From Escherichia phage Shashou, in sequence record MK931440.1: 44,155 nt of DNA; one strand, 5' to 3'. The notes below the pieces were generated by a model, which was not told the origin of the DNA, searched no databases, and worked only from the letters and a program-made list of their open reading frames with translations. Every line of letters starts with the position of its first letter. Position 1 is the stretch's first letter. Both the position numbers and the translations under genes were made by a program. Positions 10,661 through 17,504 of this stretch are shown here, one piece after another.

Positions 10661-11073
10661 TGGGCTACTTTGAAGACTTAACCAAAGCGTTCGACGTGCC
10701 GCTGGTAGCCTTCGGAAACACCAACGGCATCAAGATAGCGCTTGAGAACATCGACGCTCCGACGTCAACCGATACGCCATACCTTGCGAGTTACATGCTA
10801 CTGGCGGATACCGAGCAGGCCGACTTATTTTTCACAGAGCAACGCGCCGGTGTTTATCAGGTGGACATTAACTACGCATCGGTGAAAGGTAGCGCGCCAA
10901 TCAATAAAATGGCAGACTTACTTAACACGACATTCAAAGCAGGTAAGTCTTTTTCACGTAACGACATCTGCGCCGAAGTGCAATCGGTTAGCCTGGGGCC
11001 GCTGATTGTAGAAAATGGATGGGCTAAAAGACCATTGTCGATTAACTTTATTGCATTCACCAAGAGGCTGTGA
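10657..11073 (+). CDS. tail terminator protein (putative)
   Basis: Immediately upstream of major tail protein; ATGA coupling. Confidence 0.45.
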   Translation: MMGYFEDLTKAFDVPLVAFGNTNGIKIALENIDAPTSTDTPYLASYMLLADTEQADLFFTEQRAGVYQVDINYASVKGSAPINKMADLLNTTFKAGKSFSRNDICAEVQSVSLGPLIVENGWAKRPLSINFIAFTKRL

Positions 11074-11075
11074 AT

Positions 11076-12242
11076 ATGGCTACAACTCCTTTTAAGGGCG
11101 CGAATACCGCGCAATTCTATGTGGCGGAAACTACCCCGGGCGTGACACCGACTTCCCCGGTATGGTCGCCGTTGCGTAATACTGGCGGCGTTCCCGCGAT
11201 TACCCGCGACACTTTGACCTCCAACGAACTGGACGGCAGCCGCGAAACTACGTCAATTCGCACTGGTAACAAACAGGTTAGCGGTGAATACGCCATCGAG
11301 CTTAGCTCTAAAAGTCAGGATGACTGGCTGGCAGGTGCTTTAGGCTCTACGTGGCAATCAGGTGTATCCTTAACTGACCTGTCAATTACCGTCGCACCGG
11401 CAGGCAAGACGTTCACCCGTGCTGATGGTAGCTTTATTAAAGACGGCGTTGAAGTAGGCGACCTGATTGCGTTTACCAACTTAACGGGAGATAACGCAAA
11501 ACCGTTCATCGTCACTGCGGTAGAGGCACTGGTAGTGACCGGTGCGGGCATCCAGCACACTCTCACCACAGAGACCGCTACTACTGCTGCTAAGACCGGC
11601 GACAAACTGGAAACCGGTAGCCAGTGTAAGACGTTCTCTATTCTCACATGGTACAAAGGCCAGTGCGGCGGGACTGACGCGTACACGCTTACCAAAGGTG
11701 TAGAAGTTTCTGGTTTCACTGTTGAGCAGGCCGTTAACGCGATGGTAACGGGCAGCTTCCCGTTCATCGGGCGCAGCCAGGAGATTCTCACCGAGCTGCC
11801 GTCTGGTTCTGATTTCTCCTCTGTTACGTTTGGTGATGAGCCGTTCTCCTCAGTTGACGTTTCTGTGTTCGATGGCTCTACGCCGTTGCGTTGTGATAGC
11901 TTTACCATCACCAACGACAACAGCGCGTCCGCGCAGTTCGAACTCGGCAACACTAACGTTGCGTTTGTGGAACGTAGCCGCGCGGCCAACACCTTCTCCA
12001 TCTCCGGTAAGCTGTACGACATGGTGATGATTCAGAAGTTTATCAACGAACAGCAGGTAGAGATTAACTCTATTCTGGCGGGGGTAAACGGGGCTATGTC
12101 TTTCAGTCTGAAACGTGCAGAACTCACGGCGGTTACGCCAGAGATTGGTGGTCCTGAGTCAATCACTCAGAGCATAGAAGGACAGTCCACAGGCAATCAA
12201 TATCAATCTTCTATTGTAATACAGCGCATTAGCTACGCGTAA
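11076..12242 (+). CDS. major tail protein
   Basis: ATG at 11076 with RBS aagagg (track ORF opens at GTG 11070); T/S/G-rich 389-aa protein followed by strong bidirectional terminator. Confidence 0.7.
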   Translation: MATTPFKGANTAQFYVAETTPGVTPTSPVWSPLRNTGGVPAITRDTLTSNELDGSRETTSIRTGNKQVSGEYAIELSSKSQDDWLAGALGSTWQSGVSLTDLSITVAPAGKTFTRADGSFIKDGVEVGDLIAFTNLTGDNAKPFIVTAVEALVVTGAGIQHTLTTETATTAAKTGDKLETGSQCKTFSILTWYKGQCGGTDAYTLTKGVEVSGFTVEQAVNAMVTGSFPFIGRSQEILTELPSGSDFSSVTFGDEPFSSVDVSVFDGSTPLRCDSFTITNDNSASAQFELGNTNVAFVERSRAANTFSISGKLYDMVMIQKFINEQQVEINSILAGVNGAMSFSLKRAELTAVTPEIGGPESITQSIEGQSTGNQYQSSIVIQRISYA

Positions 12243-12270: not shown

Positions 12271-12429
12271 TTATTCCTTCAATTGCATTGGGTAGAAGTT
12301 AACGAGTTCTCCTTTATCCCGAAGCCGTGAATATTCATCTAACGCATCTTGCTGGCTACTCACTGCATAGATATCGTTCCACTCGTCCCATTCTTTGTCG
12401 TATACGCGGATTACATATATTGTTTTCAT
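12271..12429 (-). CDS. small hypothetical protein (52 aa), last gene of leftward accessory operon
   Basis: ATG a few nt downstream of the stop of 12437..12667; ends just before bidirectional terminator; not in ORF track. Confidence 0.35.
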   Translation of the reverse strand: MKTIYVIRVYDKEWDEWNDIYAVSSQQDALDEYSRLRDKGELVNFYPMQLKE

Positions 12430-12436
12430 AATATTT

Positions 12437-12667
12437 TCACACATCAATGTTACTCCTGTACTCCCGTAACTTCTCCAGGCTTTCGATTGCCTCAGCTAAG
12501 TCTGTCCAGGCGTCCTTGTGACCACGTAAACCCATACACAATAGCTTCTTCAATGCGTGCTGTAACGCCGGGTCGCGTATGTCGAAGGCGCGTAGCACGT
12601 CGTAAACGTCTACAGTCATAGTGCTGCCGTAGGTGTTTGTCATTGTGCGGTTGTATTTATTTGTCAC
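12437..12667 (-). CDS. hypothetical protein
   Basis: 76-aa ORF overlapping upstream gene; part of leftward operon. Confidence 0.5.
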   Translation of the reverse strand: MTNKYNRTMTNTYGSTMTVDVYDVLRAFDIRDPALQHALKKLLCMGLRGHKDAWTDLAEAIESLEKLREYRSNIDV

Positions 12668-12857
12668 TGTTAACTCTCTTAAATCTGGCTATGCCTGACT
12701 CGTTAATGTTGCCTATTTCAAAGAAGCTGCGATATTTAGGCGAATACATTCTTACATCGCCATTCTCTAGGGTGACTCCTTCGTACACCGCACCTACTTC
12801 GAACCCATTTTTCTCTGCATACGGACTTACCTCGGTGCATTCATACATGTCTTTCAT
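12657..12857 (-). CDS. hypothetical protein
   Basis: 66-aa ORF with ATGA overlap to phosphoesterase gene stop. Confidence 0.5.
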   Translation of the reverse strand: MKDMYECTEVSPYAEKNGFEVGAVYEGVTLENGDVRMYSPKYRSFFEIGNINESGIARFKRVNSDK

Positions 12858-13984
12858 CCCAGCATCTCCGGTGAAATAGTTAAACGTGCGACCTCGCCGT
12901 ATTCGGCGCTATAAGTAATTACATTTGCACTGCGGCCTGACATCCACCCGCCGCGGGAGGCGTAGGCATCTTTAGCCGCCAGGGTGCGGTGTTGTTCAAC
13001 AATCATGTTACGGCTTTCTACAATCTTTTGGTGGTGCAGGTGACCTACGTGGGCGTAGCTGTAAACACTCTCGCCGAACGCTTTGCGGAACTTGGCAATC
13101 ATAACCGGTTCGATAATGTCGAATCGCGCCTTATGCCCGTGATGAAAGAACAGCGTCGTTTTGCCGTGTTGCACCATCTTGTAAACATCCGGCGACGTGT
13201 CGACAATCACTCGGCTGTCGTTTGAGTATAAAGTCGCGAACATTTCCGCCAGCCATACGGACCCTACAGGATCGTGATTTCCTTGCACGATAAGCAAGCG
13301 AACGGTTTTATGTTTAACCAGCGCCATATCTACAACACGGCGGACCATACGAATCATGTAGCGGACAAGTTTCTGGTAGCGAGTGTCCGCGTCCAGCACA
13401 TGACGTGACTCAGGTGTAACGGCGTCCAGACTATCGAAGTGTACGAAGTCTCCTAGCAGATTAATAACCCCTGTTCCTGCATCCGGTGCTTTCTGAAACG
13501 CCGCATCGAACCATCGAGAGAACAGGTCTTCCGCAATCTTCATATCCCAGTCGTCGCCGCTCTCGTCGGCCCATGCCAGCATACCAAGATGAAAATCAGA
13601 CACGGTGTAAAGATTGAGTAGCTTGTCGTCGCGTTTGGCTCGAGTCGCTTTAACAGGAGCAACGGGCGTAATCTCTGACTTCATGCCTTCGATCACGGCT
13701 TTCATCAATTCAACCTGACGTTCGGCATCGGTGTCGGTCTTAACCCATTGCAACTTAGTGTTGCCGAACTCATCCACAAGTGACGACGTTCCTTTAATCT
13801 TGTAGCCGTCCGGCACAAGGTGGCTAACGTCGCGCCCGTGACCTACGCCTTTCTTCGCCAGCTTCGCTTTACGGATACGGATAACGCGGTCTGAGATTCC
13901 ATACTTACGTGCGATATCAATAATTTTTGTTCCGGCGTTCAATTCTTCCCGTAACTGTTCGTCGGTTATTTTCTTATGAGCCAT
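12854..13984 (-). CDS. HTH domain fused to calcineurin-like metallophosphoesterase
   Basis: N-terminal HTH-like KIIDIARKYGISDRVIRIRKAKL; ordered MPP motifs SDFHLG, GDFVHFD, GNHD, HHGH, GHLHH. Confidence 0.7.
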   Translation of the reverse strand: MAHKKITDEQLREELNAGTKIIDIARKYGISDRVIRIRKAKLAKKGVGHGRDVSHLVPDGYKIKGTSSLVDEFGNTKLQWVKTDTDAERQVELMKAVIEGMKSEITPVAPVKATRAKRDDKLLNLYTVSDFHLGMLAWADESGDDWDMKIAEDLFSRWFDAAFQKAPDAGTGVINLLGDFVHFDSLDAVTPESRHVLDADTRYQKLVRYMIRMVRRVVDMALVKHKTVRLLIVQGNHDPVGSVWLAEMFATLYSNDSRVIVDTSPDVYKMVQHGKTTLFFHHGHKARFDIIEPVMIAKFRKAFGESVYSYAHVGHLHHQKIVESRNMIVEQHRTLAAKDAYASRGGWMSGRSANVITYSAEYGEVARLTISPEMLG

Positions 13985-14023
13985 GCTTTACTTCCTCGTG
14001 TTTAGGATTTGTCCTATACTAGC

Positions 14024-14215
14024 TCACTTCTCTTTGACATTCGAGTTGCACGCCCAGATTAAAATAAATACCCACGGCAGCAGAACCCAACCGAGAAACA
14101 GATTAGCCATGAATATCGCTAATTTAGCTTTATGGTTGCGCATATGCGCCACGAGAAATGGGATAAAATAAACTAAAACGATAACGATTAAGAAGAACAT
14201 AGTAATACCTGTCAT
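14024..14215 (-). CDS. superinfection-immunity-like small membrane protein
   Basis: Start at Met47 of track ORF with AGGAG RBS; 63 aa with two hydrophobic segments flanking HMRNHKAK; resembles Imm-type small membrane proteins. Confidence 0.55.
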   Translation of the reverse strand: MTGITMFFLIVIVLVYFIPFLVAHMRNHKAKLAIFMANLFLGWVLLPWVFILIWACNSNVKEK

Positions 14216-14256
14216 GGTGTAGCTCCTGTTCGAGTTAACATTGTTGGTGTAAGTGA

Positions 14257-14285
14257 ATAGTATCCTATTATGTTGGGGTGCGCAA
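14257..14285 (-). promoter_or_regulatory. promoter TTGCGC-N17-TACTAT (minus strand) with palindrome AATAG-tatc-CTATT
   Basis: Palindrome at 14256..14269; region is reverse-complement homologous to 37799..37835; drives Imm-like/phosphoesterase operon. Confidence 0.5.
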
Positions 14286-14393
14286 GTAATGTGATAGAAT
14301 AATTTTGCGCCTAGTGTCGCACACGAAAAGCGGGTGGTTCCCGTCTGGCGCATTTACCATTAACCTGTAACCTCTTAACCAAAGGATTAAAGA

Positions 14394-14810
14394 ATGAAAC
14401 TTTCTGATTTTTATTACGAAGCTGAGGCAGAAAAAGGCGCCCGTATGCCGATACCACTGAAAGACGGCACCGATTCAGGGGAGTGGCTGAACGTTGTTTC
14501 ACCGGAGGCAGACGTTGCTGTTAAAGCTATGAGGGCGTTTACACTTGCGTACCGCGCGGCATTAGGTAAATTGAAACCGCTTCGCGATAAATGCGAGGAA
14601 CTGAAAGATTTCTCGGAATACAACATCAAGATGGAAGACGCCGCAACGGACCTTAACCGCCAGTTAGCGCTTGAACTGGTTAACGGTTGGAGTCTCGACG
14701 ATGAATTTAATAAAGAGAACCTGAATACTCTTTTCTCACAATATAAACGACTCGCTGAACACGTTGTTGTTTTCCACAATGAACAGCTTCACCAATTGCA
14801 GGAAAAGTAG
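14394..14810 (+). CDS. tail assembly chaperone
   Basis: Acidic 138-aa protein immediately upstream of tape measure gene; synteny. Confidence 0.55.
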   Translation: MKLSDFYYEAEAEKGARMPIPLKDGTDSGEWLNVVSPEADVAVKAMRAFTLAYRAALGKLKPLRDKCEELKDFSEYNIKMEDAATDLNRQLALELVNGWSLDDEFNKENLNTLFSQYKRLAEHVVVFHNEQLHQLQEK

Positions 14811-14815
14811 ACGCG

Positions 14816-15175
14816 TTGCTCCAGTTTGCCCGTTGGAACTTCATAACCCGCCACAAACGGCGGGAGTTTGACAGTATCGCCGACGGGCATAAAGCCGCGC
14901 TAATTGCTATGGGGGTTATGCAAGACGCGCCGGAAGCAACGCAGGACACAGGGCCGGAATGCCCCCCTGAGCTATTAACCACCTTCGAGAAGTACAGGGA
15001 AATCAAATTCACCCGCCGAGTGGACGATGATGGCATCAAGATGTACCCGCGCGAACAGTTAAGATGGTCGGATTTAGTGGCATACAGCACCGTTTCAGGC
15101 CAGAATATAGGCATGTTCGAATCTGACATCATCATGAGCTTAGACGCTATTTTCGAGGGTAGAAACGATGGCTGA
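14816..15175 (+). CDS. tail assembly chaperone extension (putative -1 frameshift product)
   Basis: Frame is -1 relative to 14394..14810 and opens at 14783, upstream of the chaperone stop; overlaps tape measure start; no classical slippery heptamer identified. Confidence 0.35.
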   Translation: MLQFARWNFITRHKRREFDSIADGHKAALIAMGVMQDAPEATQDTGPECPPELLTTFEKYREIKFTRRVDDDGIKMYPREQLRWSDLVAYSTVSGQNIGMFESDIIMSLDAIFEGRNDG

Positions 15176-17504
15176 TGTAGCTAGTTTAGTTGTAAAAGTA
15201 TCAGAGCAAGGCGCGAAAGCTACATCAGACCGTCTTGATAACCTTTCCAAGTCTGCAAAGGTAGCCGGAGCTGCGGTAGCGGGCCTCGCTTCCATCGTCG
15301 CCGCTACCGCGTACAAGGCCGCACAGGAACTGGTAGACTCCCAACGGCAACTGGACAAGATGTCCGCCAGCCTGAAAACACTAACCGGAAGCACGCAGGG
15401 TGCAAGACAGGCGTTAAGCATCCTGCAAGACTTCGCGCGCGACACCCCGTATGGTCTTGAACAGGCGGTAGAGGGATTCCGTAAACTGGTGGCTCTCGGC
15501 CTTACACCGTCAGAAGAAGCGTTGCGCTCCTATGGCAACACTGCCGCTGCTATGGGTAAAGACCTTAATCAGATGATTGAGGCCGTTGCGGACGCCAGTA
15601 CATTTGAATTTGAGCGCCTTAAAGAATTCGGCATCAAGGCCAAGCAAAACAAAGACGATGTTGAATTTACATTCCAGGGCACCACTACGGTAGTTAAGAA
15701 GAGCGCTGCCGACATCGAGCAATACCTGCTCAACATTGGTAACGTAAACTTCGCGGGGGCTATGGCGGACCAGGCCAACACACTTAACGGCGCCATCGCC
15801 AGTGCCAGCGACTCATGGTCGCAGTTAAAAATGACACTGGCTACCAGCCTTGATGTTGGTGCTCTTGCGGAGCCTATCCGGTACATCGATGATTTAATCC
15901 AGGAACTTAACGCACAGGTAGCATCCGGCGAACTCGCTGCTGAGATGCGTATGTGGGGCGACATCGCGTCAGAAGTGGGAAGCGCGATAGAGATGTCGTT
16001 CGACGCGGCATTTGGTTTCGTAGGCGACGCAATAAACGGGCTGAATGAACTTTGGGACTTTAGCAGTAAAAGTATCACCGATAGCGGTGAACAAACGGCG
16101 ACAACCATCGCGGAATCAGCCGCCGATGCGCTCGATTTCATTGCGGAAGAATTTACCGCGATGGAGCGATTCTTTGAAGATATGGTTAAAGGGGCACAGG
16201 ACGCTGGCCGGTTGGTGAAAGCTGCCTTCACACCAGGGGAATCTGTAGACGTAGCAAAAAACATTAACTTCCAGTTAGGGATGGCACTGGATACTCAGCG
16301 CGATGTTGCGGACCTGACCCGTAAAAGTTTCCGCGAACAGGTGGAGGCTCAGCAAAATATTGTCGCGCTTAAACGCGCGGCATATGACATCGACAAAGAA
16401 GCCGCTAAGGGAGAAGGTCTTAGTAAATTTAAGGTAACTGGTACTGGTGGCGGATCCGAAGATGATAGCGCAGGTGCAAAAGCCGCTAAGAAAGCCGCAG
16501 ATGCGTTCGAGCGCCAGAAGAAAGCCGCTGAGGATTTCTACTACCAGTCGATTCATCTCAATGATGACGTATTCCAGAAAATAGAAGCCAACCAGGAACA
16601 GCAGCTAACCAAGCTACAGGAGTTTTACGGCAATCAGCTTCTTAGCGACCAGCAATACGAGAACGCTAAAACTCAGATTATGCTGGAGGCGGACACTGCA
16701 CGTCAGGAAGAACTCGCCAAGCGAGAGAAAGAACGGCAGGAAAAGAACCAGAAAGGCGAGGACTTCATGGCTCAGATTATGGGTCAGAATGCCGCAGAGC
16801 TTGAGCTTTTGGAGATTCAGGAACAACAAAAACTTGACGTTGCAGACCGATATCGCGAACAGAACCTTATTAACGAGGAGCAGTACCAGGCTGCGGTTAA
16901 TGCTATAAACGACCAGTATGCTTTGAAACGTGCCAACGCTACCGGTAACGCTTTCGGAATGATGGCGGATAACATGAAGGCCTCACTAGGGGAGGCGTCT
17001 GCCGCATACAAAGCGTTTGCCATTGCGCAGGCCACCATCGCCACATACACATCCGCCATCGAGGCTTATAAATCTGCATCGGCTATCCCTATTGTTGGAT
17101 GGGTGCTCGGGCCTGTAGCAGCAGCTACAGCGGTAGCGGCAGGTCTCGCTAACATCAGCAAGATTCGTTCGGCCCGTGAGCAGGGCGGTAACTTAGCCGC
17201 AGGTCAGTTATCTACTATCGCGGAACGTAACAAGCCAGAAGTTATTATGCCTGCAGGGGCGTCACGCGTACGTACCGCGGAACAGATGCGCCAGATTATG
17301 GGCGAGAACGGCAACAAGTCAGGCGGTGACAGCGTGACAATCGTCAACAACACCACCGGACGAGTTGATTCCGCCGTTACAGAGCGTGACGACGAAGGGC
17401 GGTTACGTGTTATCATCAGTGAAACAGTATCGGCGGCGTTACAAGACAGCAACAGTGCAATCTCCAAGTCCCGCCGGGCTACACGAAACCAGCCGGGGTA
17501 TTAA
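15168..17504 (+). CDS. tail tape measure protein
   Basis: 778-aa Ala/Gln/Glu-rich helical protein with C-terminal hydrophobic and Gly-rich region; canonical position. Confidence 0.85.
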   Translation: MADVASLVVKVSEQGAKATSDRLDNLSKSAKVAGAAVAGLASIVAATAYKAAQELVDSQRQLDKMSASLKTLTGSTQGARQALSILQDFARDTPYGLEQAVEGFRKLVALGLTPSEEALRSYGNTAAAMGKDLNQMIEAVADASTFEFERLKEFGIKAKQNKDDVEFTFQGTTTVVKKSAADIEQYLLNIGNVNFAGAMADQANTLNGAIASASDSWSQLKMTLATSLDVGALAEPIRYIDDLIQELNAQVASGELAAEMRMWGDIASEVGSAIEMSFDAAFGFVGDAINGLNELWDFSSKSITDSGEQTATTIAESAADALDFIAEEFTAMERFFEDMVKGAQDAGRLVKAAFTPGESVDVAKNINFQLGMALDTQRDVADLTRKSFREQVEAQQNIVALKRAAYDIDKEAAKGEGLSKFKVTGTGGGSEDDSAGAKAAKKAADAFERQKKAAEDFYYQSIHLNDDVFQKIEANQEQQLTKLQEFYGNQLLSDQQYENAKTQIMLEADTARQEELAKREKERQEKNQKGEDFMAQIMGQNAAELELLEIQEQQKLDVADRYREQNLINEEQYQAAVNAINDQYALKRANATGNAFGMMADNMKASLGEASAAYKAFAIAQATIATYTSAIEAYKSASAIPIVGWVLGPVAAATAVAAGLANISKIRSAREQGGNLAAGQLSTIAERNKPEVIMPAGASRVRTAEQMRQIMGENGNKSGGDSVTIVNNTTGRVDSAVTERDDEGRLRVIISETVSAALQDSNSAISKSRRATRNQPGY

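Follow-up and report, generated by a model that had tools for sequence, protein, structure and literature searches.

The tail assembly chaperone gene of Escherichia phage Shashou, a member of the Guernseyvirinae (PMC6776780), very probably ends in an ordinary lambda G/GT-style -1 frameshift, the signal of which would be non-canonical and consist of the tetranucleotide A_AAG plus the stop codon that directly follows it. The window, i.e., the whole stretch of DNA that was analysed, comprises 44,155 nucleotides (nt) of sequence record MK931440.1, and coordinates are given on its + strand. At the site in question, the chaperone open reading frame (ORF; 14394..14810, frame 0), which encodes 138 amino acids (aa) and is the analogue of lambda gpG, would be joined to a 'T' part in the -1 frame (14807..15175) to give a 260-aa G-T fusion. 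Based on sequence comparison, a probability of about 0.85 is assigned to this reading. A small fraction of the ribosomes on the chaperone mRNA would slip back by 1 nt at A_AAG (14804-14807), at the last sense codon, with a single tRNA-Lys re-pairing from AAG to AAA. The codon GTA (14807-14809, Val) would then stand in the A site, and decoding would continue in the -1 frame up to 15175. The product, join(14394..14807,14807..15175), would read ...LHQLQEK directly followed by VDALLQFARW... at its junction and would be made beside the abundant 138-aa chaperone. On the model of lambda gpG/gpGT, the tape measure protein would be the partner of the G part and the tail tube protein would be brought in by the T part, with the ratio of chaperone to fusion set by the frameshift. 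The occurrence of the slip, its efficiency, and the functions of both protein parts are inferred.

The start coordinate of the chaperone ORF is 0 modulo 3 and that of the downstream ORF is 2, which places the latter in the -1 frame. This frame is open from 14783, directly after a TGA (14780-14782), up to the TGA at 15173-15175; counted to the last base of the chaperone stop, the two ORFs overlap by 28 nt, as is expected for G/GT pairs. Read in frame 0, the overlap is GAA CAG CTT CAC CAA TTG CAG GAA AAG TAG. A preliminary description of the window had proposed this geometry, had found no classical XXXYYYZ heptamer, and had named GGAAAAG as the nearest slip candidate, all of which was borne out. 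The X_XXY_YYZ heptamer that is canonical for the G/GT class is absent from 14783-14810, and the sole shift-prone element in the overlap is the proposed shift site G_GAA_AAG (14801-14807). Its A_AAG is in the right phase for tRNA-Lys to re-pair on AAA (GA[A AAG], in which AAG is a frame-0 codon), and it adjoins the frame-0 stop codon TAG (14808-14810), a candidate 'shifty stop'. A shift into the +1 frame was rejected, as that frame closes 20 codons beyond the stop.

Profile searches assign both halves of the proposed fusion to tail-assembly-chaperone families. The chaperone ORF matches PF08748 (Phage_TAC_4, E=2.5e-8; 34.6 bits, curated cut-off 21.1), and the 122 codons of the T part, from GTA at 14807 to the TGA stop, match PF23812 (Phage_TAC_18, E=1.3e-18; 67.3 bits, cut-off 27). 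The family phrog_15027 ('tail assembly chaperone', 259 positions) spans both ORFs end to end, with positions 1-138 covered by the chaperone (E=4.8e-50) and positions 136-259 by the -1 ORF, which implies that this PHROG family was built from fused products. The downstream ORF additionally matches phrog_4557 (E=1.7e-62), and the chaperone ORF is labelled tail assembly chaperone in the records of phages Sciku and fFiEco03. These two phages and fPoEco01 (all genus Kagunavirus according to their records) are 100% identical to the window over region 14300-15300. No relatives were found in a profile search of the PDB, a homologous-protein search with the fusion sequence returned 5 partial matches only and was uninformative, and an AlphaFold prediction on the single fusion sequence was unusable (mean predicted local distance difference test score, pLDDT, 38).

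Further support comes from the conservation of the junction. Two scans of IMG/VR yielded 79 related loci, which after removal of cut or disrupted loci gave 67 unique junction segments; a non-redundant subset (25-26 of the 67, junction sequences <93% identical) reaches down to 43% protein identity. The -1 arrangement is kept in every one of the ~80 related loci, so that it cannot be put down to chance; conservation of the overlap in relatives had been named in the preliminary description as a check on its proposal. In the relatives, the overlap measures 10-208 nt and is always in the -1 frame. The junction N_NNA_AAG_TAR is present in 67/67 unique relatives. The heptamer itself occurs as GGAAAAG (51), CGCAAAG (8), AGCAAAG (3), GGTAAAG (3), GGCAAAG (1), and GGGAAAG (1), i.e., the canonical G_GGA_AAG is found in only 1/67. 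Since the 5' part of the heptamer varies and A_AAG with its stop is fixed, the conserved element is A_AAG plus the stop rather than the heptamer. The codon 5' of AAG is GAA, GCA, GTA, or GGA in the family, and not the CGA of the sites in cdd and IS1222. The stop is TAG in 46 junctions, TAA in 21, and TGA in none, and it is followed by A (56) or C (11). It adjoins A_AAG in every tabulated locus; an exception is L077, a locus outside the 67 tabulated junctions, which reads A_AAG_TTA_TAG and has its stop one codon later. For comparison, among 46 non-overlapping ORFs (≥80 aa) called crudely in the window, the stop was TAA 22, TGA 18, and TAG 6 times, and 0/46 ended in A_AAG plus stop, a weak sign of rarity, as it was not checked whether the chaperone ORF itself is in this set.

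Two of the sampled relatives come from unexpected sources. The chaperone-T pair of L111 (NZ_JACVEL010000023.1, Taishania pollutisoli scaffold23, 13,130 bp) is 93% identical to the query, and this scaffold appears to be phage DNA contaminating the assembly rather than a prophage. The record PP389045.1, 'Pseudomonas phage vB_PsS_LDT325' (host P. syringae), has 90% protein identity to the window in the chaperone-T region and scores the same as the Salmonella Jerseyvirus matches beside it, a host assignment that is unexpected for so close a relative.

The conservation of A_AAG goes beyond coding needs. Over the 25 non-redundant sequences, all chaperone codons vary at the third base except 2 ATG, 2 TGG, codon 137, and codon 138. 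Codon 137 is GAA, GCA, or GTA, with its third base always A, and codon 138 is always AAG. Elsewhere in the same genes both choices are common, with AAA and AAG used 270 vs 182 times for Lys, and GAA and GAG 330 vs 239 times for Glu. Because the two frozen synonymous positions are exactly those that form A_AAG, the comparison indicates that this conserved shift-prone site is under selection at the nucleotide level, for which a simple C-terminal Lys cannot account.

The place of the frame change can be narrowed down further. L079 and L082 carry a TAA in the -1 frame just upstream of the site (ACT TAA CGC AAA GTA), which leaves only 10 nt open up to the end of the stop, and therefore the frame change must fall at GCA or AAG. 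At this site, tRNA-Ala is unable to re-pair on CGC, and tRNA-Lys re-pairs perfectly on AAA. The beginning of the second ORF is informative as well. The -1 ORF is intact in all tabulated relatives (118-122 codons), and upstream of any conserved start its codon-position entropy in the -1 frame is 0.71/0.59/1.36 bits (positions 1/2/3). In the majority of distant clades, the first ATG, GTG, or TTG of the -1 ORF lies at +101, at the Met of a conserved A-M-G-V motif, and in L099-L101, L103, L106, and L107 none of these codons occurs within 130 nt. The 34 codons before +101 are nevertheless conserved as protein (V-x-A-L-x-x-F/Y-A-x-W...K-F-D-S-I...H-x-x-A-L), and since they are start-less and -1-periodic, their residues can be made only by ribosomes that come from the chaperone ORF.

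Remote homologues carry canonical heptamers at the same position or slightly upstream of it. L031 has A_AAA_AAC in phase with a TGA directly after it, followed by a 112-codon -1 ORF. In L112 (NZ_BAABFL010000468.1, Kistimonas scapharcae, 1168-1961), A_AAA_AAA adjoins a TAG and the -1 overlap is 10 nt; this 51-kb contig of a marine gammaproteobacterium is taken to be a prophage, and the locus is a clean outgroup for the frameshift architecture. In Pseudomonas phage Almagne, T_TTT_TTC lies ~50 nt before the stop, and the -1 frame then reads ...RLDGLYQYARAEF (including DGLYQYARAEF), which is comparable with ...VDALLQFARWNF of the window. Because of these heptamers, the family as a whole appears to use -1 frameshifting at this position, with the Guernseyvirinae as the version with a minimal signal. 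A tblastn search against 50,697 phage records returned 506 with a match; among the best 45 of these, all but the weakest matched in two pieces, i.e., in two frames, and an in-frame fusion was found in none of the 45. Together, the frozen A_AAG-stop, the minimum overlap of 10 nt, the start-less -1 ORFs, and the heptamers of the remote homologues support the G/GT-type frameshift that the preliminary description had suggested from geometry.

The surroundings of the locus are also those of a G/GT module. Tail terminator and tail tube genes lie upstream of the chaperone and the tape measure gene lies downstream (Pfam/PHROG), and the order tube, chaperone, -1 ORF, tape measure is the one expected for G/GT (Xu et al. 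2004). On the upstream side, the module is marked by the tail tube (major tail) protein gene at 11070..12242 (+; PF18906 Phage_tube_2, E=9.6e-39; phrog_290), and the tape measure protein gene is located at 15168..17504 (+; phrog_1538, E=8e-197). The ATG of the latter overlaps the end of the -1 ORF in ATGGCTGA (15168-15175). This overlap of stop and start is kept in most relatives examined, including the remote L031; L024 carries ATGTCTGA at the position of the overlap. It suggests either that tape measure translation is coupled to the rare frameshifted ribosomes or that the gene has a separate entry site.

How the slip would come about can be viewed against what is known of minimal sites. The minimal -1 site is a Z_ZZN tetranucleotide, of which A_AAG is by far the most efficient in E. 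coli, where the single tRNA-Lys pairs better with AAA (PMC4066793; PMC5009743). Natural use of A_AAG is known from B. subtilis cdd and from IS1222, 'intermediate' heptamers with G_GA or G_GU as first part have been described, and a stop codon on the 3' side of a shift site can promote the shift (PMC5009743). In the window, G_GAA_AAG would let tRNA-Glu move onto GGA, where one of its pairs would be G·U; this is not conserved in the relatives, which leaves single-tRNA slippage of tRNA-Lys as the common denominator. The slip would occur either with AAG in the A site (as a near-heptamer G_GAA_AAG, possibly aided by a stem-loop found in the window's clade) or with AAG in the P site while the stop is waiting (a 'shifty stop'). 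The fact that the stop abuts A_AAG, as well as the heptamers of L031 and L112, and that TGA is never used in the tabulated junctions suggests that the stop is part of the signal, with P-site slippage while termination is awaited.

Several observations weigh against the proposed frameshift. In reporters, A_AAG without a stimulator gives ~0.15% frameshifting, barely over background, and it reaches 5.6% only together with a pseudoknot (PMC4066793). As A_AAG alone is near background, some stimulator is expected. A stimulator of the cdd/IS1222 type was not found at the level of the family, as RNAalifold gave ~0 kcal/mol for every range around and downstream of the site over 26 diverse sequences, and no upstream Shine-Dalgarno (SD) sequence is conserved. 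The genome description of Shashou reports no canonical slippery sequence (PMC6776780), and no report of the detection of the fusion protein in any Guernseyvirinae phage was found in the searchable literature. In addition, the window's own clade has a TTG at 14816 with an AGGA 12 nt upstream, and the YTG at this position is invariant in the family, which is compatible with a start or near-start codon. Some independent initiation at TTG 14816 could thus take place in this clade, and a separate 119-aa product could be made from it.

The last points are the core of an alternative in which no fusion is made, i.e., ribosomes terminate at TAG 14808-14810, and either re-initiation at TTG 14816 or fresh initiation there on AGGA (14800-14803) yields a free 119-aa 'T'. 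The start and the putative ribosome binding site (RBS) exist and are annotated as such in Sciku, the 119-aa protein is the commonest deposited form (292 contigs), and in phage Bas74 the second ORF is annotated with a CTG start. However, TTG is present in 4/25 non-redundant relatives, all in the window's own cluster, and the other 21/25 have the synonymous Leu codon CTG. Several relatives lack an SD-like sequence upstream (those with CGCAAAG and AGCAAAG), and the 12-nt spacing from SD to start is long. By analogy with lambda, the T part would act while joined to G. A separate gene would also leave unexplained why A_AAG is frozen at two synonymous sites and why canonical heptamers stand at exactly this place in remote homologues, and it is accordingly held to be quite unlikely.

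Slippage of the RNA polymerase on the A run (GAAAAG) would lead to the same fusion, in that a minority of mRNAs with one extra A would be translated normally; a run of four A (14803-14806) does lie at the junction, and trans-frame products are known to arise in this way too (PMC5009743). The run comprises only 4 A here, though, and drops to 3 A in relatives with GCAAAG or GTAAAG, and the conserved phase of AAG beside the stop matters to ribosomes and not to a polymerase. Homopolymers known to support productive transcriptional slippage are far longer than 3-4 A, and such a route is considered highly improbable. Finally, the overlap could be incidental and the -1 ORF a decaying or untranslated remnant, with the 138-aa chaperone as the sole product, in line with some records (EnJE1 and Almagne) that leave the stretch unannotated. 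This reading is effectively refuted by coding conservation in the sequences compared: the ORF is intact in all tabulated relatives, has strong Pfam and PHROG signals and the codon periodicity given above, and ends in the conserved overlap with the tape measure start. The -1 frameshift at A_AAG therefore remains the preferred reading.

For this frameshift, a stimulator may be sought in the RNA downstream of the site. A long, irregular stem-loop is predicted at 14813..14900, 5 nt after the slip site (minimum free energy, MFE, -41 kcal/mol; z = -3.4 vs 200 shuffles), and this fold, which is confined to the window's clade, is a candidate 3' stimulator. Its predicted stems include 14813-14816 with 14897-14900 and 14828-14836 with 14880-14888. 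For 10 sequences of the clade, the consensus fold has -33.7 kcal/mol; its pairs are almost all invariant, and the covariation term amounts to only -0.71. For three sequences of the window cluster, the 90-nt segment from +4 is the most stable in both ORFs (rank 0.0); over 26 sequences, the 90-nt junction segment has a median stability rank of 0.18, which is suggestive only, and sliding windows of 45 or 60 nt showed nothing. Between Kagunavirus and Jerseyvirus, synonymous divergence per codon is ~0.47 in the chaperone and 2.3-fold lower (~0.20) in T codons 139-195, where nonsynonymous change is not lowered. In other clades, divergence is lower over the whole T ORF, and the synonymous signal is hence confounded by recombination history. 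No frameshift element family of Rfam was matched. A pairing of 5' ACAGC with 3' GCUGU around the slip site, seen by eye in some clades, was rejected, as it is out of register between clades and was not recovered by RNAalifold.

A second conserved element lies directly downstream. The hexamer GCGYTG (GCGTTG in the window, 14813..14818), which begins 5 nt downstream of where the stop begins and contains TTG 14816, is invariant in all 67 unique relatives, even at the third bases of Ala141 (GCG) and Leu142 (YTG). Besides GTA, which is forced by the stop, these two are the only third-base-invariant codons among the first 40 of the T part (n=25). When sequences are folded individually, GCGYUG is mostly predicted to pair, with partners that differ between clades and z-scores from -2.8 to +1.8; no conserved pairing partner for it was found. 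The hexamer may form the 5' base of structures that differ by lineage, serve as linear context, or reflect near-cognate initiation at YTG. A tentative and rather unlikely extension of the proposed mechanism is that A_AAG_UAR_NN_GCGYUG forms a compact, largely unstructured cassette, in which the abutting stop and the hexamer would replace the heptamer and the stem-loop or pseudoknot as stimulators. If this were true, GCGYUG would be a 3' element of a kind undescribed for bacterial -1 frameshifting, which may act, e.g., via the mRNA channel, an rRNA contact, or the termination context.

In sequence databases, the locus is treated in five ways. The record of fFiEco03 has a joined coding sequence labelled 'frameshift product', and the identical 260-aa fusion is likewise annotated as a frameshift product in fPoEco01; the exact fusion is found in NCBI as QNO11663.1, QNO11812.1, YP_010748927.1, and YP_010749081.1, two of which are RefSeq entries. 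Thus, the fusion has already been predicted by some annotators for identical sequences. The record of Sciku instead has a separate ORF from TTG 14816 with the AGGA (14800-14803) as 'RBS', and those of Golestan and EC3-1 have two 'tail assembly chaperone' genes. The second ORF starts at a CTG in Bas74, is shortened in Serratia phage Tsm2 so as to begin at an internal ATG, and is missing from the annotations of EnJE1 and Almagne. The genome announcements of Sciku and Snoke and the fBC-Eco01 paper are silent on a frameshift. The probable use of A_AAG as a minimal slip site in place of a textbook heptamer explains this disagreement among annotators. The finding is mainly a matter of annotation, as it bears on hundreds of genomes of Kagunavirus and Jerseyvirus, including many phages considered for therapy, for which one rule may serve the whole subfamily, namely, to join at the A_AAG before the stop.

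The proposed system resembles several known ones in part. As in lambda gpG/gpGT, two ORFs lie just upstream of the tape measure gene, and the second, in the -1 frame, begins before the first has ended (Levin et al. 1993; Xu, Hendrix and Duda 2004, 2013, 2014, as summarised in PMC5009743), and the outcome, for the window a prediction from sequence, would be a short abundant chaperone and a rare fusion. In contrast to lambda, where the heptamer is G_GGA_AAG, the family keeps only A_AAG abutting the stop (G_GAA_AAG in the window), its proteins fall into different Pfam families (PF08748 and PF23812), and in the window a reverse-strand module (12271-14353) splits the tube gene from the chaperone. 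With the A_AAG/NNA_AAG sites of cdd (A_CGA_AAG) and IS1222 (G_CGA_AAG) (Licznar 2003, Sharma 2014), it would share the re-pairing of a single tRNA-Lys from AAG to AAA, the dispensability of re-pairing by the 5' tRNA, and a shift near the end of the upstream ORF. It differs from them in the 5' codon (GAA, GCA, GTA, or GGA, not CGA), in the stop immediately 3', and in the lack of a conserved upstream SD at a stimulatory distance.

'Shifty stop' sites (Weiss et al. 1987; G_GAU_UUU near UAG in pea enation mosaic virus, PEMV) likewise have a stop directly 3' of the slippery codon at a conserved position, and the base after the stop in the present family (A or C) gives a weak context. However, the classical programmed examples are +1 shifts (prfB, antizyme), the stop is displaced by one codon in L077, and the role of the stop here is suggested by conservation only. 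With E. coli dnaX (A_AAA_AAG, an upstream SD, and a downstream stem-loop), the window shares the shifty Lys codon AAG, the same host tRNA-Lys, and, in its clade, a predicted stable stem-loop 5 nt downstream; unlike dnaX, it has neither A_AAA_AAG nor an SD 10 nt upstream, and its stem-loop is not conserved in the family and lacks covariation support. The understanding of tail assembly chaperones is unchanged by these comparisons. The locus would nonetheless represent a natural, deeply conserved A_AAG tetranucleotide frameshift beside a stop in an essential phage gene, and it may offer a convenient system to gauge how much of the -1 slippage is due to a stop codon and to a short sequence downstream.

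The reverse-strand block between the tube gene and the chaperone (12271-14353) contains five ORFs in an otherwise forward tail module. In the annotation of Sciku, it holds a hypothetical protein (12657-12857), a phosphoesterase (12854-13984), and a T4 Imm-like superinfection immunity protein (14024-14353), with ribosome binding sites; the remaining ORFs (12271-12447 and 12437-12667) are bare ORF calls. The immunity gene lies directly upstream of the chaperone in 6/7 Guernseyvirinae-type records, and Tsm2 has a hypothetical protein in its place. Because the immunity gene recurs at this position, a separate promoter for chaperone, T, and tape measure is probably required in 14354-14393, where a scan for promoter consensus sequences found none. 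Elsewhere in these genomes, an intein in the helicase is described in the genome announcement of Shashou, and a large intein in a capsid morphogenesis gene in that of Snoke.

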